From an uncultured bacterium (lineage in GTDB: Bacteria > Verrucomicrobiota > Kiritimatiellia > PWTM01), in the NCBI GenBank assembly GCA_938005705.1, contig CALLML010000029.1, positions 5,705 to 69,704 of the forward strand: a DNA stretch of 64,000 nt, given 5' to 3'. Position 1 is the first letter of the stretch, and each line of letters opens with the position of its first letter. Shown here piece by piece: positions 26,193 to 60,337 of the stretch. Under the pieces are notes generated by a model. It was not told where the DNA came from, searched no databases, and saw only the letters and a list, made by a program, of their open reading frames with translations. Position numbers and translations under genes: made by a program.

Positions 26193-26912
26193 TCAAGGGC
26201 GCGGCAGCGTCAAGGTGGTTCCCACTTTCAACTTGTTCGGATCCGATATGACGGTTCGGTTGGCTTCGTGGATGCGCCGCCCCGCCGAGGCGTCGCCGTA
26301 AAACTTCTCGGCGATGCTCCACAGGGTGTCGCCTGGACGCACGACGTAGGTCGTCAGATCGCGCGGCGGCGGGATGGGGGCTGGATGCGGCAATGTGGGA
26401 GGCCCGGCATCCGCCGGTGGAACCGGCGAGGGCGAGAAGTCCGTGCCGGCCGAGGCGGCCGCGCGGTGGGCCGACAGTTCAGCACGAAGCAACTCATTTT
26501 CACGCCGCAACGCCGCAATCATCTCGACAGCCCCCGGTGGTGTCTGAGCCATCGTCGCAGCAAATGAAAGCCGCGCGCGCCGCGCGAGGTCCTCGACGAT
26601 CTCCCGCTTCTCGGTCGTCGGCCGCGCCTCCAGATAGCGCTCATAATGATACACCGCGCGGATATAATCCTCTCGCTCCTGGTCATACAGCAAGCCCAAT
26701 TCCAGGTGGGCCCGCGCCAACCGCGGATTTTTTTCCAGCGCGGCATGAAACCCGGCGATGGCGCCGGAAATATCGCCGGCGCGTTTCAACGCCAGCGCGC
26801 GCCGCATCAGCGGATGATTTTCCTCGCGCGCGTCGCGGGAACCGCCCATGCATCCCATCAGGCCGACGCTCAGCGCCAGCACCGCTACAAATGACATCTC
26901 ACGCATGTCCAT
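26193..26912 (-). CDS. Lipoprotein with TPR-like repeats and C-terminal LysM domain
   Basis: Lipobox LMGC after a signal peptide. TPR-like AHLELGLLYDQEREDYIRAVYHYERYL. LysM YVVRPGDTLWSIAEKFYGD...LKVGTTLTLP. Confidence 0.6.
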   Translation of the reverse strand: MDMREMSFVAVLALSVGLMGCMGGSRDAREENHPLMRRALALKRAGDISGAIAGFHAALEKNPRLARAHLELGLLYDQEREDYIRAVYHYERYLEARPTTEKREIVEDLARRARLSFAATMAQTPPGAVEMIAALRRENELLRAELSAHRAAASAGTDFSPSPVPPADAGPPTLPHPAPIPPPRDLTTYVVRPGDTLWSIAEKFYGDASAGRRIHEANRTVISDPNKLKVGTTLTLPRP

Positions 26913-26954
26913 CCCCTAGCATTACTCCGCCACCACGTCAATGGCCCTCATGAA

Positions 26955-27545
26955 CATGAAGAGGAGAGCCGATGGCGCGGCGGGGAATGAGCGGCGGATA
27001 AAGGCGTGGGCAAAGGGATGCGAACATCATGTACCCCCGACGCCCCAGCACCATTTGTCGGTTTTTCGCATGGTTCCAAAAAAAACACGGGGGGTTCGTC
27101 CTTGGGGTTTCAAGCGGGTATAGGTTGCGGTGTACAAGCCCCGCATGAACTTCGAATCTCCTTCCTCGCTCTTCGGTCTGGGGCATGATGAACGCCGGGG
27201 CGGAGGGCAGGGCCAGGCCGTGGGGGCCGTCGGCCGGACAAGCAGCCAGTCAGGGTCGGGTGTCGAGGGAATTCGATAAGTCCGGTGGGATGGAGCCGGT
27301 TGCCCGGTGGAATATCCGGGAGGCGCTGTAATGGCATGACCGCCTTTTTCCCTGGCGCATCGCCGGCACAAAACCGGGCGATCTACCCGGGGCACAGATC
27401 GGCTGGTTCGGCTCCTTCGGCGAATGGAATCAACAGCGAAAATACACCGGGTCCTGGGAGGCAAGCCGTTTCCCTCTCGTCTGCCAAAGCCCGCTTTTCA
27501 AGCCAGCTCCTGTAGCGCAACCGGCTCAGGAGAGGAAAGGGCCTC
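26955..27545 (+). repeat. Non-coding structured repeat, copy A of a three-copy family
   Basis: Collinear with 56118..56640 (blocks ggcggataaaggcgt..., gggtatAGGttgcggt, cgctcttcggtctgggg, ggctggttcggcTccTtcggcgaatgga, gcaaccggct) and partly with 31285..31650. No credible ORF. Confidence 0.5.
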
Positions 27546-27754
27546 GGTGATCGCCAACGGGACGTGGCGGGATGGCGTTAAACAGGTAGAGTCGGACCGG
27601 CGCGCAGGACAAAAGAGACGGAGACGGAGCAAAAAGAATGAACGACCGGTCCTGGTTCCGGCCCTGCCGCTGGAGTGGATTCCATCGCTGTGCAGCCCGA
27701 ACGGTTCGGCACGCCGCATCGCGCGAGGCGACGAAAATCCGCTTCCAAGACGGT

Positions 27755-27772
27755 TTTCCAAGCCTTGGAAAA
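27755..27772. promoter_or_regulatory. 18-bp near-palindrome TTTCCAAGCCTTGGAAAA (putative operator), copy 1
   Basis: Identical 18-mer recurs at 35460..35477. Both are about 70-130 bp upstream of plus-strand gene starts (27904 and 35544). Confidence 0.3.
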
Positions 27773-29681: not shown

Positions 29682-31205
29682 TCAAGCGTTCGCGTTGGCC
29701 AGGATCACGGGAACGATCATCACCGTCGGCCGGCTCTGGATGGCGATCTCGACCGGACAGCGCACCACCGGATCCACCACTTCACCGGCGTGCAGCGTGA
29801 AGGGGACGACACGGGGACCGGACATCACGGGGGGCAAGACCGTCACCGCCGCATTGGCCGGTTCCGCGCGCCATCCCGGCGGCACATGCCAGCGCAGCGA
29901 AAGGCAGGCGTGCGTTTTGTAGGTGTTGCGCAGGATGAAGCGGACGCTCTTCACCTCGCCGTTGCGGATGGCGGGCGCGCCTTGCGTCTGGACATCCACC
30001 GCGAAGAAATCGAAGCGATACCGCGCAACGTGCACCCGCTCGATCAGGTCCTGTCGAAGCGACTCGGGCGCGTACAAGTCAGCAATCGGATCGCGAGCCT
30101 TCTCGACTTCTGCTGGGGTTGAGAAGGGCACGTCCAGGGGCGGAGCGGTTTCGAGCACACGTCGCGCCATCCGCTCGGTGCGATCGGTCAGCGCATCCAC
30201 TGTTGCCGGAACCTGCGCGCCGAAAGGCCCCAATTCGCCGAGATTCAGGCTGATCGTCTTGATGCGGCGCCCGATGGGACTGATCCATTTTTGTGGAATC
30301 GCCGCGATTCCGCGCATCAGCCCGAAAACGGCTCCGGCGGTGGCTGCCGTGCAATCGGTGTCCTCTCCGCAATTGACGGCGGTTGTGACAACCCGCCCGA
30401 AGTCATCCTGACCCTCCAGCAGCGCCAGCACGGCCAGCGCGACGTTGGACGGCGCGTCGTATCCGATCCGCCCTTCGTGGAACCCTTTGGCCCGGTCTTC
30501 CGGGCTGGTGCGGTGGAGCAGGCCAAACAGGGTGGAACCGCGGTAGCCGCGGAGAATTTCATCGCGGGATTCCCGCCAGGATTTGCCCGCCGTATGGCAT
30601 TCGATCGCACACCGCACCGCACCGGCGACGCCGGATTCGGCGGGGACATAAGAGAGACCGATTTCGATTAGGCGGCGCAGATCATTGCAGACGAACGCGG
30701 CGCTTTCGAGGGCGGCGAAGAAAACCTCCCCCCATGTGCCTTCACCATCGCCGTGGTCCACGATCGCATCTTCGATGGCGTACTGTGCCGCGAGGTCGGG
30801 GCGGCCCGGCGCGAGACAAGCCCATATTTCCGAGCGGATGAACGCACCGCAACTGTGCCGAAACTCATTGCCGAACGTTCCGGACCATGGGGGCGGCAAC
30901 CCGCGGCGCAGGTTGATCTTGGCGGTGCCGTACTCGGACCAGTGCGGCGTGACGTAGAGGCACCAGTACTCGGCGAGCGTGTGGGCGTCCAGTCGAGGGC
31001 CCCGTTCCTCCATCGCGATCAGCCAGAGAAGCTGAAGGTCCAGATCGTCGTTGGGCAGCGGCTCGCCGCCAAGGTCCTGGGTGTAGAAAGAAACATCGTT
31101 GATTTGCCGGATAAATTCGAACGGAGCGCCCAGCGTGCCCCCAATATTCTTTCCCATCCAGCAACCCAAAACGCGGTCGTGATAACCAGTCGGAAGCGCG
31201 TTCAT
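29682..31205 (-). CDS. ADP-ribosylglycohydrolase family protein with about 180 aa C-terminal extension
   Basis: ARH core (GCWMGKNIGGTLGAPFE...GEDTDCTAATAGAVFG). In-frame ATG at MNALPTGY, complement 31203-31205. The C-terminal 180 aa (APPLDVPF...VEIAIQSRP) have no motif I recognise. Confidence 0.7.
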   Translation of the reverse strand: MNALPTGYHDRVLGCWMGKNIGGTLGAPFEFIRQINDVSFYTQDLGGEPLPNDDLDLQLLWLIAMEERGPRLDAHTLAEYWCLYVTPHWSEYGTAKINLRRGLPPPWSGTFGNEFRHSCGAFIRSEIWACLAPGRPDLAAQYAIEDAIVDHGDGEGTWGEVFFAALESAAFVCNDLRRLIEIGLSYVPAESGVAGAVRCAIECHTAGKSWRESRDEILRGYRGSTLFGLLHRTSPEDRAKGFHEGRIGYDAPSNVALAVLALLEGQDDFGRVVTTAVNCGEDTDCTAATAGAVFGLMRGIAAIPQKWISPIGRRIKTISLNLGELGPFGAQVPATVDALTDRTERMARRVLETAPPLDVPFSTPAEVEKARDPIADLYAPESLRQDLIERVHVARYRFDFFAVDVQTQGAPAIRNGEVKSVRFILRNTYKTHACLSLRWHVPPGWRAEPANAAVTVLPPVMSGPRVVPFTLHAGEVVDPVVRCPVEIAIQSRPTVMIVPVILANANA

Positions 31206-31284
31206 AATGTATGGAAAATAGTCCCACAGGAATCGAAAAGTCAATGCCGCCTGCCGGCGGGCGCGTCGATGGCGCTGTTGGGGA

Positions 31285-31650
31285 TGAGTGGTAAATACAG
31301 GCGCCGGCGAAGGGAGGCGAAAATCGTTTACCCCAACGACCCCGCGCCAATCGCCGGTTTTTCTCGCCGCTCCCTCCAAAAACATGCATTTTTTTTGGGC
31401 CTTGATGTGGGTATGTGTTGCGGTGCAATTCACGGACGGCGTGGAAGCCGTCCCTCCAACTCCATCACAGGCCCTTGGAGGGTCGGGTTCCCCCCCGACC
31501 ATACGGCTGGACTCTGGGCAAGGGGCCGGCCTCTCCAACCGAGATTCGGACCGCCCTTCTCCTGTTCTGCTGTTGGCTCATGTTCTTCGCTTTTCATGGC
31601 GTCTTCTCCGGTGCGTAGCCCAGATTTTTCCACACCCCCTCGACTATCGC
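31285..31650 (+). repeat. Non-coding structured repeat, copy B
   Basis: Shares cgaaaatcgtttaccccaacgaccccgcgccaatcgccggtttttc..., gggtatgtgttgcggt and a ggtcggg-loop-cccgaccatacggc hairpin with copy C. Confidence 0.45.
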
Positions 31651-31985
31651 AGGGGTCGCGAACTCTCCCCCCGTAAGGCGGAGTCCGGAACTCGAAGAAA
31701 AATCGACGAAGGGGGATGAGGTCTATCCCGAGGGAGCTATTCGGAGGCCGAAGCGACGGTTGGGGAGGCGGGAACCGAGGTTTTTTCCAATTACGGAGAT
31801 TTTCGCCCCTCTCCGCATCCAGACCCCTCCTCTCGCCCCTAAAAACAATCCACAGCGCAATCGTCTGCCGGCGGGCACCCGACCGCGGCGCTTTCGAATG
31901 GACAAAAGGAGCGCATCGTCATATTTTCGGTCTGCTGACGATCGCGCGTTCGCCGATATCCACGGCGGTCATGACGATTAAAGGT

Positions 31986-35110: not shown

Positions 35111-35459
35111 ACGCGCGAAGCGCACCATTCGAGCAACACAACACACAAACGCATTTTTCCCCGCGAGTAAAGCGGAAAGAGCAGGCGGCGTCTCCGGGAA
35201 TTCGCCGACCGCCATTCCTCGCATCACGGAGTTTTTGAGCCTCTCCAATACCATCCCACCCGCTAAACCTTCTGTCACGTCATAGAAATCAAACGGGTAA
35301 ATTCGGGCTGTCCCCAGCTCGACGGACAACCGTTGACCCGGGCCGGCGGGGAAGAGGTCCAATATTTCACCTGTGAGACTGTTCCGCGAATGGAATTGCT
35401 CTTCGCGCAGGAGAAGAGGAAAATGTTGCGTGGCGGGGAGGAGCCAGAGCGAATCCAGG

Positions 35460-35477
35460 TTTCCAAGCCTTGGAAAA
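35460..35477. promoter_or_regulatory. 18-bp near-palindrome TTTCCAAGCCTTGGAAAA, copy 2
   Basis: Identical to 27755..27772. 67 bp upstream of the NUDIX gene ATG. Confidence 0.3.
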
Positions 35478-54779: not shown

Positions 54780-56069
54780 TCAAGATGCCCAGGGCACCTC
54801 CCGCACCTGCCGGCCTTTTTTCCATACCGCCACGGCGCGACCCCACAGTTTATGTCCCATAAACGGCGTATTGCGAGACTTCGACAAAAACCAATCCGCT
54901 CGCACGGTCCACGGCGTCGTGACATCCAGTAACACCAGATCCGCCGGCACACCCGGCCGCAGCGACGGCGGCGGCAGACCCAGGACGGCGGCGGGTCCGG
55001 TGGTCCAGCGCCGCAGCCATTCTATCGGCGGCATGCCGTATTCAATCACAAGTCTTGTCCATGTCACGCCGATGGCGGTTTCCAGCCCCACCATCCCGGG
55101 CGGAGCCTTCTCGAACCCCCGCGCCTTCGCCTCAATCGTATGGGGCGCGTGATCCGTCGCCAGGCACGAAAGAGTCCCTTCCAGCACCCCCTGGATCAAT
55201 GCCTCGCGATCCGCTCGGGATCGCAGAGGCGGATTCACCTTGAAGTTCGGGTTCTCCAGCCTCACATCTTCGTCGATCCATGTCAGGTGATGCGGGGTTG
55301 TTTCGCCGCTGACAGGCAACCCTTCTGCGCGCGCCGCGCGGATGCAAGCGACGCCTTCTGCCGTCGAAACATGTTGGATATGAACGCGCGCGCCGGTTTC
55401 GCGAGCCAGTCGAATGTCACGTTCGATTATGCGTATCTCCGCCGCGGCAGGAATGCCCGGCACCCCACGGCGCTGCGAACACCTGCCTTCATGCATAACG
55501 CCCCGGCGTTCAAGCGTCGGGTCCTGCGCGTGATCGAGGATCGGAAGGCCCAGGGCCGCGGCACGATCCATGGCCTCGCGCATGATGACATCCTCCGGCG
55601 GCGTTGACCCATCGTCCGTAAAGGCCGATGCGCCCGCCGCCGCCAATGCCTCCAAATCGGCCACCGCTCGGCCTTCTCGGCTGCGCGTAAGACAGGCGCT
55701 CTGCAATAGGATGGCGCCATCTTCTACGGCCGCGGCGCGCCGCAGCGCCGCGCGAACGTGTTCCGGGGTGTCTATCGGCGGTATCGTATTGGGCATGGCA
55801 ACCACCACCCCAAAACCGGCCATCCTCGCCGCACGCAGGCCTGTCGCCGTCGTTTCTGCGGCTTCATTCCCGGGCTCGCGCAAATGGACATGCAGATCAA
55901 TCAGGGCCGGAACCACGATGCGGCCGTCCGCGTCGAAAACAGCGGCCTCACTGGGCGAAATCTCCGATCCCTCGGCAATGCGGCCGTCTATGATATACAG
56001 ATCCCCCCGCTCGTCAGTGCCATCATCTGGATTGATCCGTCGCGCGTTTCGTATAACCAGAGCAGCCAT
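54780..56069 (-). CDS. pyrC: Dihydroorotase (cyclic amidohydrolase)
   Basis: DLHVHLREPG metal-binding motif. MPNT and DHAPH motifs. ATG at MAALVIRNARRI, complement 56067-56069. Confidence 0.75.
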   Translation of the reverse strand: MAALVIRNARRINPDDGTDERGDLYIIDGRIAEGSEISPSEAAVFDADGRIVVPALIDLHVHLREPGNEAAETTATGLRAARMAGFGVVVAMPNTIPPIDTPEHVRAALRRAAAVEDGAILLQSACLTRSREGRAVADLEALAAAGASAFTDDGSTPPEDVIMREAMDRAAALGLPILDHAQDPTLERRGVMHEGRCSQRRGVPGIPAAAEIRIIERDIRLARETGARVHIQHVSTAEGVACIRAARAEGLPVSGETTPHHLTWIDEDVRLENPNFKVNPPLRSRADREALIQGVLEGTLSCLATDHAPHTIEAKARGFEKAPPGMVGLETAIGVTWTRLVIEYGMPPIEWLRRWTTGPAAVLGLPPPSLRPGVPADLVLLDVTTPWTVRADWFLSKSRNTPFMGHKLWGRAVAVWKKGRQVREVPWAS

Positions 56070-56117
56070 GGCGCGTCTTATACCCTCACCGTTCCATGAG
56101 ACGCAACGTGAATAGCG

Positions 56118-56640
56118 CCTGCATGAACGAAGCGGTGACGCCGCGGGGTATGAACGGCCGATAAAGGCGTCGACGAACGGGTACGAATATCGTTTGCCCC
56201 GACACCCCCGCGCCATTCGCCGGTTTTTCTTGCCGCTCCTGAAAACACGCATTGTTCGATCCTGGGGGTCCGGAAGCGGGTATATATTGCGTTATATAAG
56301 CCATGTATCATGTATGAAGTTCGTCTTCCCCCATCGCTCTTCGGTTGGGGGCATAACGAACGCCGAGGTCGCGGGCTGGGGCTAGCCGGGTTGGGCGCCG
56401 AGGGAATCGGAGAGCCGTATGGTCGGGTTCCAGCCCGACCATACGGCAACAAACGGTGACGAGTCGACTCGCCGCCGTTTGTTAGGACAGACCGGCTGGT
56501 TCGGCACCCTCGGCGAATGGAAACCACGGTGAAGATATACAGAGCCCTTAGATGCAGGCCGTTTCCCCTCGTCTGCGAATGCCCGCCTTTTAAGCATGCT
56601 TCCGCCGCGCAACCGGCTGCCCGTCTATCCATTCGTTGAC
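56118..56640 (+). repeat. Non-coding structured repeat, copy C (contains perfect 14-bp stem hairpin at 56414..56447)
   Basis: Collinear with copy A. Hairpin gccgtatggtcggg-ttccagc-cccgaccatacggc. Immediately upstream of the pseudopilin gene. Confidence 0.5.
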
Positions 56641-56727
56641 CAATACACCTGTATGCACCAAACCAATTTTTATGCCTTGCCGCCGAATACCATTCGCGCA
56701 ACAATATCCAGCAGGCGGAGAGTCGCT

Positions 56728-57332: not shown

Positions 57333-57406
57333 TGGGCCCGGCAGGGATCGAACCTGCGACCAGAGGATTATGAGTCCCCTGCTCTGACCAGCTGAGCTAC
57401 GGGCCC
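57333..57406 (-). tRNA. tRNA with CAT anticodon (elongator tRNA-Met, or tRNA-Ile2 if lysidinylated)
   Basis: GGGCCCG/CGGGCCC acceptor. Anticodon loop CTCATAA. T-arm GCAGGTTCGATCCCTGC. CCA not encoded. Confidence 0.8.
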
Positions 57407-57487
57407 GGTATATTGACGCGTCGCCTGAAAACATTTATAACCCGTATCAAATTGGTGCTGGTATTTACGACCGGCCCATCCCGACGC

Positions 57488-57561
57488 TGCCGGATGGTGT
57501 AATGGTAGCACCGCAGATTCTGGATCTGCTTGTCTAGGTTCGAATCCTAGTCCGGCAACCA
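57488..57561 (+). tRNA. tRNA-Gln (anticodon CTG), U1:A72, CCA encoded
   Basis: TGCCGGA/TCCGGCA acceptor. Anticodon stem GCAGA/TCTGC with loop TTCTGGA. T-arm CTAGGTTCGAATCCTAG. Confidence 0.8.
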
Positions 57562-57566
57562 CCACC

Positions 57567-58667
57567 TTACGAGATCATCAGCGGCATGATCACATAGAGA
57601 AATGGCTCGTCGGTTCGAATCACGCCAGGACTGGTCGGGTTTGATATTTCCAGGGTCACCTCGTCGGAGACCAGGTACTTCAGCGGATCTATTAGCAGCG
57701 TCGGATTGAACGCTATAGTGATCTCATCCCCTTCATATTTGACCGGCACCGTTTCTCGTGCGTCGCCAACATCGACCGAGGAAGCCGTTATTTCGACCCG
57801 ATTCTTTCCAAAGTTCAAGCGAACCGTATTGCTTTTCTCGCTCGTTAATAGGGACACACGCCGCAACGCGTTCATGAAAAGTTCCCGTTCGATCGTGATC
57901 CGCATAGCCGCCTGCGACGGAATGACCTGTGCAAAGTTGGGATAGACTCCCTCAATTAATTTCGTCCGTATCTGCAAATTATCCGTTTCAAAGATCGCCT
58001 GGCTCGGCATCACTCGTACCCACATCGTGCCCTCATCGCCCAGCGAGCGAACCAGCTCGTTGACCGCCTTCGTCGGTAAGATCACATCGAACGACTCCTC
58101 CACAACCGATTCCAGGTCCTGTTCCACGAGCGCGAGCCGACGTCCATCCGTAGCCACCGCGGTCAACCGACCTTCTTTAATTCTAAGCAACGTCCCGTTT
58201 AAAACACGACGACTCTCATCCGTGGATGCCGCGTAGCCAACTCGCTGCAGCATCGTTTTCAAGACCTTTTGGTCCACCGTCAAAGCCCGAGCCTCTACCG
58301 CCGAAGGAAACGGGGGAAAATCATCCGCAGAAATGCCCCGCAGCATGAAGACCGCGGAACCTGCGGATATGGAGGTCGTTTCATTCTCCAGGCGTTCAAA
58401 GTTCAGTTCCGCGCTTGGCGCATCCCTCACTATACTAGGAACAATCTTTGCCGGCAGTGTCGTAGCGCCTTCCCGTTCAATCGTTGCGGGAATGGTCGCA
58501 CGCACACTCAGGTCAAGATCCGTTGACATGATATGGACTTTGCCACCTTCCGCGGTAAAGAGAAGGTTCGAGAGCACACTGATGGACGTTCGTATGCCCA
58601 CTGCAGCGGAAGCCTTCTGTAGTGCGCTCATCAATGGGTCTTTGCCCACCGTGAATTTCATGGCCAT
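57567..58667 (-). CDS. dnaN: DNA polymerase III beta sliding clamp
   Basis: MKFTVGKDPLMSALQKASAAV start. 366 aa three-domain clamp. ATG at complement 58665-58667 with GGAAGGAA ribosome-binding site. Confidence 0.9.
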   Translation of the reverse strand: MAMKFTVGKDPLMSALQKASAAVGIRTSISVLSNLLFTAEGGKVHIMSTDLDLSVRATIPATIEREGATTLPAKIVPSIVRDAPSAELNFERLENETTSISAGSAVFMLRGISADDFPPFPSAVEARALTVDQKVLKTMLQRVGYAASTDESRRVLNGTLLRIKEGRLTAVATDGRRLALVEQDLESVVEESFDVILPTKAVNELVRSLGDEGTMWVRVMPSQAIFETDNLQIRTKLIEGVYPNFAQVIPSQAAMRITIERELFMNALRRVSLLTSEKSNTVRLNFGKNRVEITASSVDVGDARETVPVKYEGDEITIAFNPTLLIDPLKYLVSDEVTLEISNPTSPGVIRTDEPFLYVIMPLMIS

Positions 58668-58927
58668 TCCTTCCTTTCCTGAGCATTCTCGTGTTTTGAT
58701 AATAGTCTTTATGCTCAAAAAATAAAGCGCCGTATTATTCGTGCCTGTTTGTATGTTTCAATCTTTGTCAGACTGGCTTTAATACTAGTTCTGAATAGAG
58801 GGAGGGATGTAAACAAGTCTGTGGAAAAATCGCAAAAAAATGGTCGACGAGCGCGATGGGGGAAATATCCACACAGATTGAACATGTTGCTATCATGTTT
58901 TTCATTCTTGGATGCATGGGATGGTGT
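58668..58927. promoter_or_regulatory. Candidate oriC / DnaA-box region in the dnaA-dnaN spacer
   Basis: AT-rich 260-bp spacer. DnaA-box-like ATATCCACA (about 58864) and TGTGGAAAA (about 58819). A-tracts. Confidence 0.35.
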
Positions 58928-60337
58928 TCAACCCCGTGTGATTTTATTCTCGAGACATTCGATCATCTCACGGAAGGAAGCGTCGTTTTTTATCCGCCGT
59001 TCAACGATGTTACAGGCGTGGATAACGGTAGCATGGTTACGGCCAAAGGCCTCGCCGATGGACGGAAGAGACCGATGGGTCAGACGTCGGCACAGGTACA
59101 TGGCGATCTGACGTGGAAAGGCGATGGATTGAGGCCGACGTTTGCTCGTCATGTCCGCCAACCGCAGGTCGTAGGCTTCAGCGACTATGCGCTGAATCGC
59201 TTCCAGGGAAGGGGCGCGCCGAACGGGATCAACGCTGTCGCGCAACAGGCGGCCAGCCATTTCCACGGTTGGGGATTGACGAAGAAGAGAGGCATACGAA
59301 ATAACGCGCGTTAGCGCGCCTTCCAGACGGCGCATGTCTGTTTGGATGTTCTCGGCAATATAGAGAAGAACGTCATTGGGGATTGTGAGCTGCATAGCCT
59401 CGATCTTTTTTCGCAGGATGGCCACGCGCGTCTCCAGATCCGGAGGCGATAGCTCGGTTACAAGGCCCCAGCCAAAACGTGAAACCAGGCGTGGTTCGAG
59501 CCCTTCTATTTCCGCGATGGGACGATCACAAGTTAGGACAATTTGTTTGCGGCTGTAAAAGAGGGCGTTGAAGGTATGGAAAAATTCCTCCTGAACGCCT
59601 CGCTTTCCCGCCAGGAAATGGACGTCGTCGAGCAGCAATATGTCGACACTCCGATATTTTTTTCGAAATTCAGCTGGCCGGTTGTTCTGAAGAAACTCAA
59701 TGTATTCGTTGAGGAACGACTCGGCAGAGAGGTAACACACCTGAGCCGACTTGATGGCGTGAAAGACCTGGTGACCGATGGCCTGGATGAGATGCGTTTT
59801 TCCCAGTCCTGGCCCTCCGTAGATCAACAAGGGGTTGTATGCACAAGCTGGCTTTTGAGCGACCGCCAGACAAGCCGCATGAGCAAACGAATTCGAGGGC
59901 CCGACAACGAAGGCATCGAATGTGAATGATGGACAAAGGGTTGGTGTCGGGCGTGGTTCGACGCGTCGCCGAGAAGACGTTACGTGCTCGGCAGGCTCCA
60001 CGGGCGATGCCACGAGGGGTTCGACGGCCACGGTGTCGGAAACGCGGAAAACTACGTCCATAATGTCCGTGGTCTCTTCGGCGATGATTTTCCGAATGAG
60101 AGGAAGATAATTCTCCGTCAGCCAAAGAACATAGAAATCGTTCGCGACATTGAGCGTAAGTCTGTTTCCCTCTATCGCACCAGGCTGGATAATGGATATC
60201 CACCGGTCAAAAACATCCTGAGCTACCGCCCCGCGCAAACGCTCGCGCACCTTTTTCCACACACACTCGGCAGACTCATGTTCGGCCATACTAATCTCTC
60301 TCGATTTTTCAAAAAAGACAAGGGGTTTTATCAACAA
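58928..60337 (-). CDS. dnaA: Chromosomal replication initiator DnaA
   Basis: AAA+ Walker A GGPGLGKTHL. VDILLLDDVHFL. C-terminal DNA-binding helix region. Start either at 60337 or at M17 (MAEHESAE). Confidence 0.9.
   Translation of the reverse strand: MLIKPLVFFEKSREISMAEHESAECVWKKVRERLRGAVAQDVFDRWISIIQPGAIEGNRLTLNVANDFYVLWLTENYLPLIRKIIAEETTDIMDVVFRVSDTVAVEPLVASPVEPAEHVTSSRRRVEPRPTPTLCPSFTFDAFVVGPSNSFAHAACLAVAQKPACAYNPLLIYGGPGLGKTHLIQAIGHQVFHAIKSAQVCYLSAESFLNEYIEFLQNNRPAEFRKKYRSVDILLLDDVHFLAGKRGVQEEFFHTFNALFYSRKQIVLTCDRPIAEIEGLEPRLVSRFGWGLVTELSPPDLETRVAILRKKIEAMQLTIPNDVLLYIAENIQTDMRRLEGALTRVISYASLLRQSPTVEMAGRLLRDSVDPVRRAPSLEAIQRIVAEAYDLRLADMTSKRRPQSIAFPRQIAMYLCRRLTHRSLPSIGEAFGRNHATVIHACNIVERRIKNDASFREMIECLENKITRG

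Follow-up and report, generated by a model that had tools for sequence, protein, structure and literature searches.

Bacterial MITEs, exemplified by the Correia elements of Neisseria, RUP of Streptococcus and the IS-derived MITEs of Acinetobacter, and DDE insertion sequences (ISs) generating duplications of about 9 bp, such as those of the IS4 type (IS10/IS50) and the IS903 type, IS1 and IS256, are the described systems closest to the repeat family analyzed here. The family agrees with bacterial MITEs in its length (about 0.1-0.6 kb), its non-coding character, its terminal inverted repeats and, at copy B and in decayed form at copy A, target-site duplications, its multicopy and intergenic occurrence, often beside promoters, and in having its left end in common with a longer ORF-bearing relative. 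In contrast to many MITEs, its three copies in the window (the whole 64-kb stretch of DNA analyzed) are larger (491-605 bp), show no sequence similarity to any element in the collections searched, and keep a left non-coding/promoter region of ~215 nt together with the first codons of the parent gene. With the DDE ISs the family shares short imperfect terminal inverted repeats, a duplication of 9 bp (in the family possibly 11 bp), and a single ORF located a couple of hundred nucleotides from the left end under its own promoter, whereas the ORF of the family is known from 49 N-terminal residues alone, which match nothing. Large bacterial structured ncRNAs of Rfam (OLE, ROOL, GOLLD, raiA and HEARO/omega RNAs) likewise consist of several hundred non-coding nucleotides with conserved blocks and hairpin regions of variable length; the family, however, gave no covariance-model match, no clear excess stability and, over nine copies of its 5' module, essentially no covariation, and displays transposon hallmarks instead. 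In the survey by Tempel et al. (2022; PMC9208149), ISs were described at short distances from neighbouring genes and a regulatory pairing was proposed. The family is comparable to the IS-gene couples of that survey in ending 12-24 bp from the -35 boxes of its neighbours, and differs from them in its unusually uniform geometry and orientation and in consisting of non-autonomous relics.

In blastn comparisons, copies A and C were shown to share two collinear blocks (E 1.6e-29, 71-80% identity), and copy B was related to both C (E 2e-20) and A (E 9e-15). A repeat search of the window recovered the same three copies as family D1, plus extra blocks common to A and C, and a 24-nt degenerate pattern (CCCNGCNCCANTNGNCGGTTTTTC), derived from the block common to A, B and C, matched the A, B and C sites only in 64 kb, against 0.04 matches expected. 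These three approaches upheld the claim of a preliminary description of this DNA that the regions are related, collinear and in one orientation, all being homologous and located on the plus strand. The coordinates given there identified the three regions correctly but not their true limits, which are those listed in Table 1, and the 3' side of B in particular had been under-called by ~220 nt. As judged by Pfam searches on the neighbours, all three copies are placed in long divergent intergenic regions, between genes that are functionally unrelated to those at the other copies, and the best-matching named relatives of the neighbour proteins in the window belong to Planctomycetota/Phycisphaerae MAGs. 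Each copy indeed lies 5' of a plus-strand feature, as had been noted earlier. Copy C is situated ~1 kb from the dnaA-dnaN region, and a replication origin is probably close.

Table 1. Positions of the repeat copies, their parts and their surroundings (window coordinates unless a contig is named)
Feature	Position	Strand	Description	Basis
Copy A	26966-27527	+	562 bp, A/C-type non-autonomous element	alignment with C, blastn, terminal analysis
A, neighbours			LysM/TPR gene (minus, ATG 26912) / TauE-family gene	
A, left-flank interval	26912-26965			
A, left flank TGAAGAGGA	26957-26965		7/9 match to right flank	
A, left terminal inverted repeat GAGCCGATGGCGC	26966-26978	+	11/13 complementary to right end GCGCAACCGGCTC	
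A, left-end module D1	26966-27067	+		ten-copy alignment; alifold
A, degenerate internal promoter box TTCAAG-N18-TACAAG	27109-27138	+		aligned with L010/L018 TTGACG-N18-TATAAG
A, remnant ORF MNFESPSSLFG...	27145-27279	+	44 codons	tblastn of L018 N-terminus
A, right terminal inverted repeat GCGCAACCGGCTC	27515-27527	+		terminal analysis
A, right-end 12-mer	27516-27527			
A, right flank AGGAGAGGA	27528-27536		partner of 26957-26965	
Copy B	31263-31867	+	605 bp, B-type element	blastn vs L017 and L004; termini
B, neighbours			ADP-ribosylglycohydrolase gene (minus, ATG 31205) / tRNA-Tyr 31986	
B, left-flank interval	31205-31262			
B, left target-site duplication CCGGCGGGC	31254-31262		9/9; 11/11 with preceding TG	
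B, left-end module D1	31263-31363	+	93% identical to L015	pattern, alignment, alifold
B, left inverted repeat core CGATGGCGCTGT	31267-31278	+	11/12 complementary to right-end core	
B, right inverted repeat core ACAGCGCAATCG	31852-31863	+		terminal analysis
B, right-end 12-mer	about 31856-31867			
B, right target-site duplication CCGGCGGGC	31868-31876		partner of 31254-31262	
Copy C	56129-56619	+	491 bp, A/C-type element	alignment, blastn, left-end comparison
C, neighbours			dihydroorotase (minus, ATG 56069) / pseudopilin gene (ATG 56728)	
C, left-flank interval	56069-56128			
C, left-end module D1	56129-56229	+		pattern, alignment, alifold
C, left inverted repeat CGGTGACGCCGCGG	56133-56146	+	11/14 complementary to right-end CCGCCGCGCAACCG	
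C, degenerate internal promoter box CGGAAG-N18-TATAAG	56271-56300	+		alignment
C, remnant ORF MYEVRLPPSLFGW...	56310-56459	+	49 codons	PSLFGW match, tblastn
C, right inverted repeat CCGCCGCGCAACCGGCTG	56602-56619	+		terminal analysis
C, right-end 12-mer	56608-56619			
Spurious gene calls	56078-56704; L001 685-1308; L041 1393-1908	- (window call)		
tRNA-Met and tRNA-Gln	57333-57561	-; +	near copy C	
dnaN	57567-58718	-		
DnaA-like ORF	58928-60337	-		DnaA domains in L044

The family was found to be bounded by imperfect terminal inverted repeats of the form 5'-GARCCGATTGCG...CGCAAYCGGYTC-3'. In the ten-copy alignment, which includes seven relatives from other genomes, the onset of similarity was abrupt at the 12-mer GARCCGATTGCG in every copy, this left-end 12-mer being conserved in all 10, and its reverse complement, CGCAAYCGGYTC, terminated all four complete copies (A, B, C and the relative L017). 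The left end of A matched the family consensus GAGCCGATTGCG at 11/12 positions. Complementarity between the two ends amounted to 15/16 in L017 and is given for the window copies in Table 1; the scores of the individual inverted repeats were only modestly better than those of random 30-mers (p 0.0005-0.07).

Target-site duplications, which the preliminary description had suggested seeking at the copy edges, were perfect over 9 bp at B, matched at 7/9 positions at A, and were recognisable neither at C, whose flanks read TGCATGAAC and CCCGTCTAT, nor at L017. The 11-mer TGCCGGCGGGC occurs twice in the 64 kb, at 31252-31262 and 31866-31876, namely at the two edges of B, and the flanks of A (TGAAGAGGA/AGGAGAGGA) appear from their sequence to be the decayed remnant of a 9-bp duplication. 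The pre-insertion (empty) site of B is predicted to read ...AATGCCGCCTG CCGGCGGGC ACCCGACCGCGG.... When this site was sought via orthologues of the ADP-ribosylglycohydrolase gene (71-81% protein identity, L030-L037), the element was absent, but the loci were not syntenic, and the strain-level contigs all carried an element or broke inside one; no empty site emerged from either set. Directly past the right end of L017 (600-680, minus reading), the sequence ..KKGVLQVTIPKTESARAARRTIKIEPD* was observed, which looks like the C-terminus of an Hsp20-type protein with the N-terminal part missing; this adjoining gene fragment suggested a deletion or rearrangement at L017, which is also the copy from another genome without a target duplication.

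The left-end module D1 comprises ~100 nt, is 75-93% identical among copies, and ends in a hairpin and T-run (..TTTGTCGGTTTTTC in A), the stem being followed by GGTTTTTC; read directly from the sequences, the stem of A carries one G-C to A-T exchange. Beyond the module, A and C contain degenerate promoter boxes, that of C not being flagged in a sigma-70 scan of the window, and remnant ORFs, whose homology to the ORF of the longer relatives is limited to the first ~12 codons (MNFESPSSLFG in A; ..PPSLFGW in C) and gives way to ~300 nt of non-coding sequence up to the right end. All junctions are shared by A and C, which present one internal architecture at two loci. Meanwhile, B and L017 have a different shared interior in two genomes, B having the same architecture as L017 with ~240 nt of additional internal sequence. 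These shared architectures (A/C; B/L017) suggested that the short forms themselves were propagated.

The blocks that had been listed as common to the three copies correspond, in order, to module D1 at the left end, the spacer of the promoter box ('gggTATrTrTTGCGkT'), the opening codons of the lost gene ('CGCTCTTCGGT..'), internal sequence, and the right repeat ('GCGCAACCGGCT'). This list stood for A and C, but B shares with both of them only the first ~165 nt, to ~31425 (module plus promoter spacer), and the terminal repeat, and with C only a 27-nt hairpin block at 31481-31507. Two long, near-perfect, back-to-back hairpins were observed in C at 56413-56445 and 56449-56484, with the arms CCGTATGGTCGGG..CCCGACCATACGG and then AACAAACGGTGACGAG..CTCGCCGCCGTTTGTT; the first of them is 93% identical to the segment of B just mentioned, the interiors otherwise differing, which implied mosaic interiors among subfamilies. 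A candidate long-range pairing of CCATTCGCCG in the left module with CGGCGAATGG ~340 nt downstream was dropped, being seen in two sequences only.

In agreement with the earlier statement that none of the copies has a credible ORF, the ORFs on A, B and C gave no Pfam or NCBIfam match, and six-frame tblastx comparisons (A against C, B against L017) favoured no reading frame. In public gene calls, C is overlain by a hypothetical protein of 207 aa and A by one of 171 aa (positions in Table 1); both calls are spurious, produced by the long open frames that occur in non-coding DNA of high GC content.

When 185,579 species-representative genomes were scanned for the family pattern, 17 loci were obtained, seven of which (L004, L007, L009, L010, L015, L017 and L018) proved to be true homologues by blastn. 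All seven came from three uncultured-bacterium MAGs of one project (CALGXT, CALHGX and CALGMT, with L018 on CALGXT010000166.1 and L010 on CALGMT010000003.1), so that the family totals ten copies in four genomes, and the genes flanking the MAG copies were unrelated to those around A, B and C. L004 and L015 were truncated left-end fragments. Another GCGCAATCGGTT site, at position 4260 of L017, was taken for a chance match. In four of the seven MAG copies (L007, L009, L010 and L018) a true contig end falls inside the element, and the short-read contigs of the window's own strain are likewise interrupted within A (L042), B (L040, which stops at window position 31695) and C (L044, which begins at 56575). 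These contig ends and breaks indicated that the family behaves as a multicopy repeat in assemblies.

Searched with the family pattern, 241 million metagenome records and IMG/VR yielded chance matches only, from which we infer that the family is lineage-restricted. In addition, nothing was found in a protein-guided viral scan, and blastn against plasmids revealed no known IS. The earlier assertion that no described element matches thus holds, at the sequence level, in the collections searched.

Two of the relatives, L010 and L018, which belong to two separate MAGs and differ in their left flanks, were found to be of a longer type, in which the shared left end leads into the same ORF. A promoter box (TTGACG-N18-TATAAG) is located 6 nt before the ATG of this ORF, which starts with MNFEYTPSLFGWDRLDDSPDLQTVRRFFEALPAEKLLSALRQRRGRGRD..., differs by a single synonymous change from one copy to the other, and consists almost entirely of codons ending in G or C (very high GC3). 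In both cases the ORF runs off the contig, the contigs ending after 33-49 codons. The 49 N-terminal residues gave no match in Pfam, NCBIfam or an index of 5.8 billion proteins, and the plasmid tblastn hits, which were unrelated hypothetical genes and did not rise above chance level, were discarded. The ..RRGRGRD motif of the ORF may resemble N-terminal regions of some planctomycete IS4/IS5-like transposases, and the ORF is here assumed to encode a putative transposase.

Based on the inverted repeats, the 9-bp duplication, the unrelated sites, the reproducible short forms and the longer gene-bearing relative, A, B and C, at 491-605 bp, are likely to be MITE-like, non-autonomous, internally deleted derivatives of a DNA transposon or insertion sequence. 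Accordingly, the repeat family is probably a new lineage-restricted MITE/IS family of ordinary class, and not a new RNA. The same features, together with the multicopy nature of the family, support the reading as a miniature non-autonomous element that had been offered in the preliminary description, and on wider comparison the copies turned out to be essentially what that description had foreseen as a contrary outcome, namely fragments of an IS. The accompanying idea that the element brings promoter activity received no support, the internal box being near consensus in the MAG copies only and degenerate in A, B and C.

A full-length element, none of which was recovered in the sequence obtained, would comprise, from left to right, the GARCCGATTGCG repeat, a ~100-nt non-coding module with the hairpin and T-run, a promoter resembling those of sigma-70 (TTGACG-N18-TATAAG), whose spacing of 6 nt from the ATG would give rise to a leaderless mRNA, a protein gene beginning MNFEYTPSLFGWDRL..., and, at the right end, the inverted repeat CGCAAYCGGYTC. 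Of these parts, the short copies would have kept both ends, the left module, a degenerate promoter and the first ~12 codons, and would have lost the gene. The transposase supplied by full-length copies would bind the two inverted repeats and move the short copies in trans, with insertion occurring through a staggered 9-bp cut that duplicates the target, while the hairpin and T-run may insulate the gene of the element from outside transcription. Given the 20-30% divergence and the degenerate promoters, the copies in the window are probably old and no longer active. If this MITE-like interpretation is accepted, one supposed new large structured RNA drops out as a candidate, about 1.7 kb of intergenic DNA can be annotated as transposon relics, and the family explains the assembly fragmentation of the lineage at these points; as the scans of large public collections returned no relative at the sequence level, it would constitute a new lineage-restricted mobile element of uncultured, probably Planctomycetota/Phycisphaerae-like bacteria.

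Short copies of this kind could also arise as wreckage in situ, if complete ISs had inserted and then lost their interiors by independent deletions, the short forms never having been mobile as MITEs. Such a history is in line with the age of the copies (70-80% identity), with the lack of duplications at C and L017, with the clear truncation of L004 and L015, and with the gene fragment abutting L017, which indicates that rearrangements occur at the elements. A and C, however, agree in their junctions at two loci, and B and L017 in two genomes; independent deletions would not lead to such a common architecture, and we consider this course of events quite unlikely.

The relation of the copies to a divergent minus-strand gene is more regular than that to the plus-strand feature. 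In at least 8 of the 10 copies, a TTGAC.-like -35 hexamer of the divergent gene was located 12-24 bp outside the left end, always in the same orientation, and was often followed by a -10-like box at 17-19 bp and then by the ATG 7-10 nt later. Measured to an approximate left edge, set 4-5 nt outside the 12-mer, the ATG of the divergent gene is 37-86 nt away in 8/10 copies, and the gap between this ATG and the 12-mer is 53 nt in A, 57 nt in B and 59 nt in C (intervals in Table 1; the left flanks of L004-L018 were also considered). The chance of such placement was estimated, generously, at 0.18 per copy, and by our own estimate is ~3e-5 for 8/10. Upstream of the minus-strand dihydroorotase (56069-56100), ADP-ribosylglycohydrolase (31205-31245) and LysM/TPR (26912-26945) genes, a -10-like box was observed 7-10 nt before the ATG, without a Shine-Dalgarno sequence; this short spacing, in the neighbours as in the long-copy ORF, suggested that leaderless mRNAs are frequent in the organism.

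Uniform placement and orientation beside promoters are not usual for decaying transposon relics, and the left module could be retained for a function. The placement may reflect selection against disruptive insertions combined with orientation effects, targeting upstream of promoters, or exaptation of the left module. More specifically, integration might be promoter-guided and oriented, with the left end ~12-24 bp upstream of the -35 hexamer of mostly leaderless genes and always pointing away from them, or the left module might have been exapted as an upstream promoter element, a tentative proposal that we regard as unlikely. Targeting, if this and not selection is the cause, would be an unusual way for a bacterial transposon to choose its integration sites, a counterpart of promoter-tethered integration, and the uniform -35-adjacent placement is the only aspect of the family that is of wider interest.

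The same geometry could be taken to mean that the copies are a conserved cis-regulatory cassette, that is, an upstream activating region or bidirectional promoter module that was duplicated or recruited before several leaderless genes and kept for the control of the divergent neighbours. The similar distances of the left end from the -35-like hexamer and, in A, B and C, from the ATG, as well as the fact that the truncated L004 and L015 keep exactly the left module beside a gene, are consistent with this idea. A cassette of this sort would, however, leave unexplained why an inverted repeat is found at the opposite end, why 9 bp are duplicated on either side of the complete B copy of 605 bp, and why a long version bears an ORF, and the neighbour genes are functionally unrelated; moreover, regulation by the left module is compatible with a transposon origin by exaptation and is not opposed to it. 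We hold a regulatory cassette to be a very unlikely explanation of the family.

Finally, the copies had been proposed to be a structured RNA, either sRNAs or leaders. Transcription of such sRNAs or long leaders would begin at the internal TATAAG-type promoter or further upstream, and their complementary ends would pair into a closing helix. In favor of such an RNA, the 5' and 3' ends are complementary in each copy and paired in the MFE folds, some of the end pairs being G-U on the plus strand only, long perfect hairpins such as C 56413-56445 are present, and every copy occupies a long intergenic region and faces the same way as the gene downstream of it. The end-to-end pairing in the MFE folds follows from the inverted repeat, however, and the Rfam search that had been recommended gave nothing credible on A, B and C even at E<=10, only tRNAs reaching the gathering score. 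The folding energy equalled that of shuffled sequences for A (z-score 0.00) and was marginal for C (-1.88). Compensatory changes, examined with RNAalifold on nine copies of the 5' module, were confined to a double change in 1/35 pairs, with a covariation term of +0.36 from few and too-similar sequences, of which only two belong to full A/C-type copies. Of the conserved stem-loops reported earlier, the hairpins themselves were confirmed, but their conservation as structure was upheld neither by folding nor by alifold. Considering further that all three window copies have a degenerate promoter box, that the 5' part of the family is common to a protein-coding element, that B has a target-site duplication, and that the positions are not conserved between genomes, the loci there being unrelated, a structured RNA is highly improbable.

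A perfect palindrome, TTTCCAAGCCTTGGAAAA (core TTCCAAGCCTTGGAA), was also observed in the window, at 27754-27772 upstream of the TauE gene and at 35459-35477 upstream of a plus-strand gene (ATG 35544). Its two matches in the window compare with 0.07 expected, and the palindrome 15-mer occurs twice after a terminator in the MAG contig L017 (482-496 and 514-528). This palindrome is probably an operator or a small palindromic repeat of the lineage, separate from the element.
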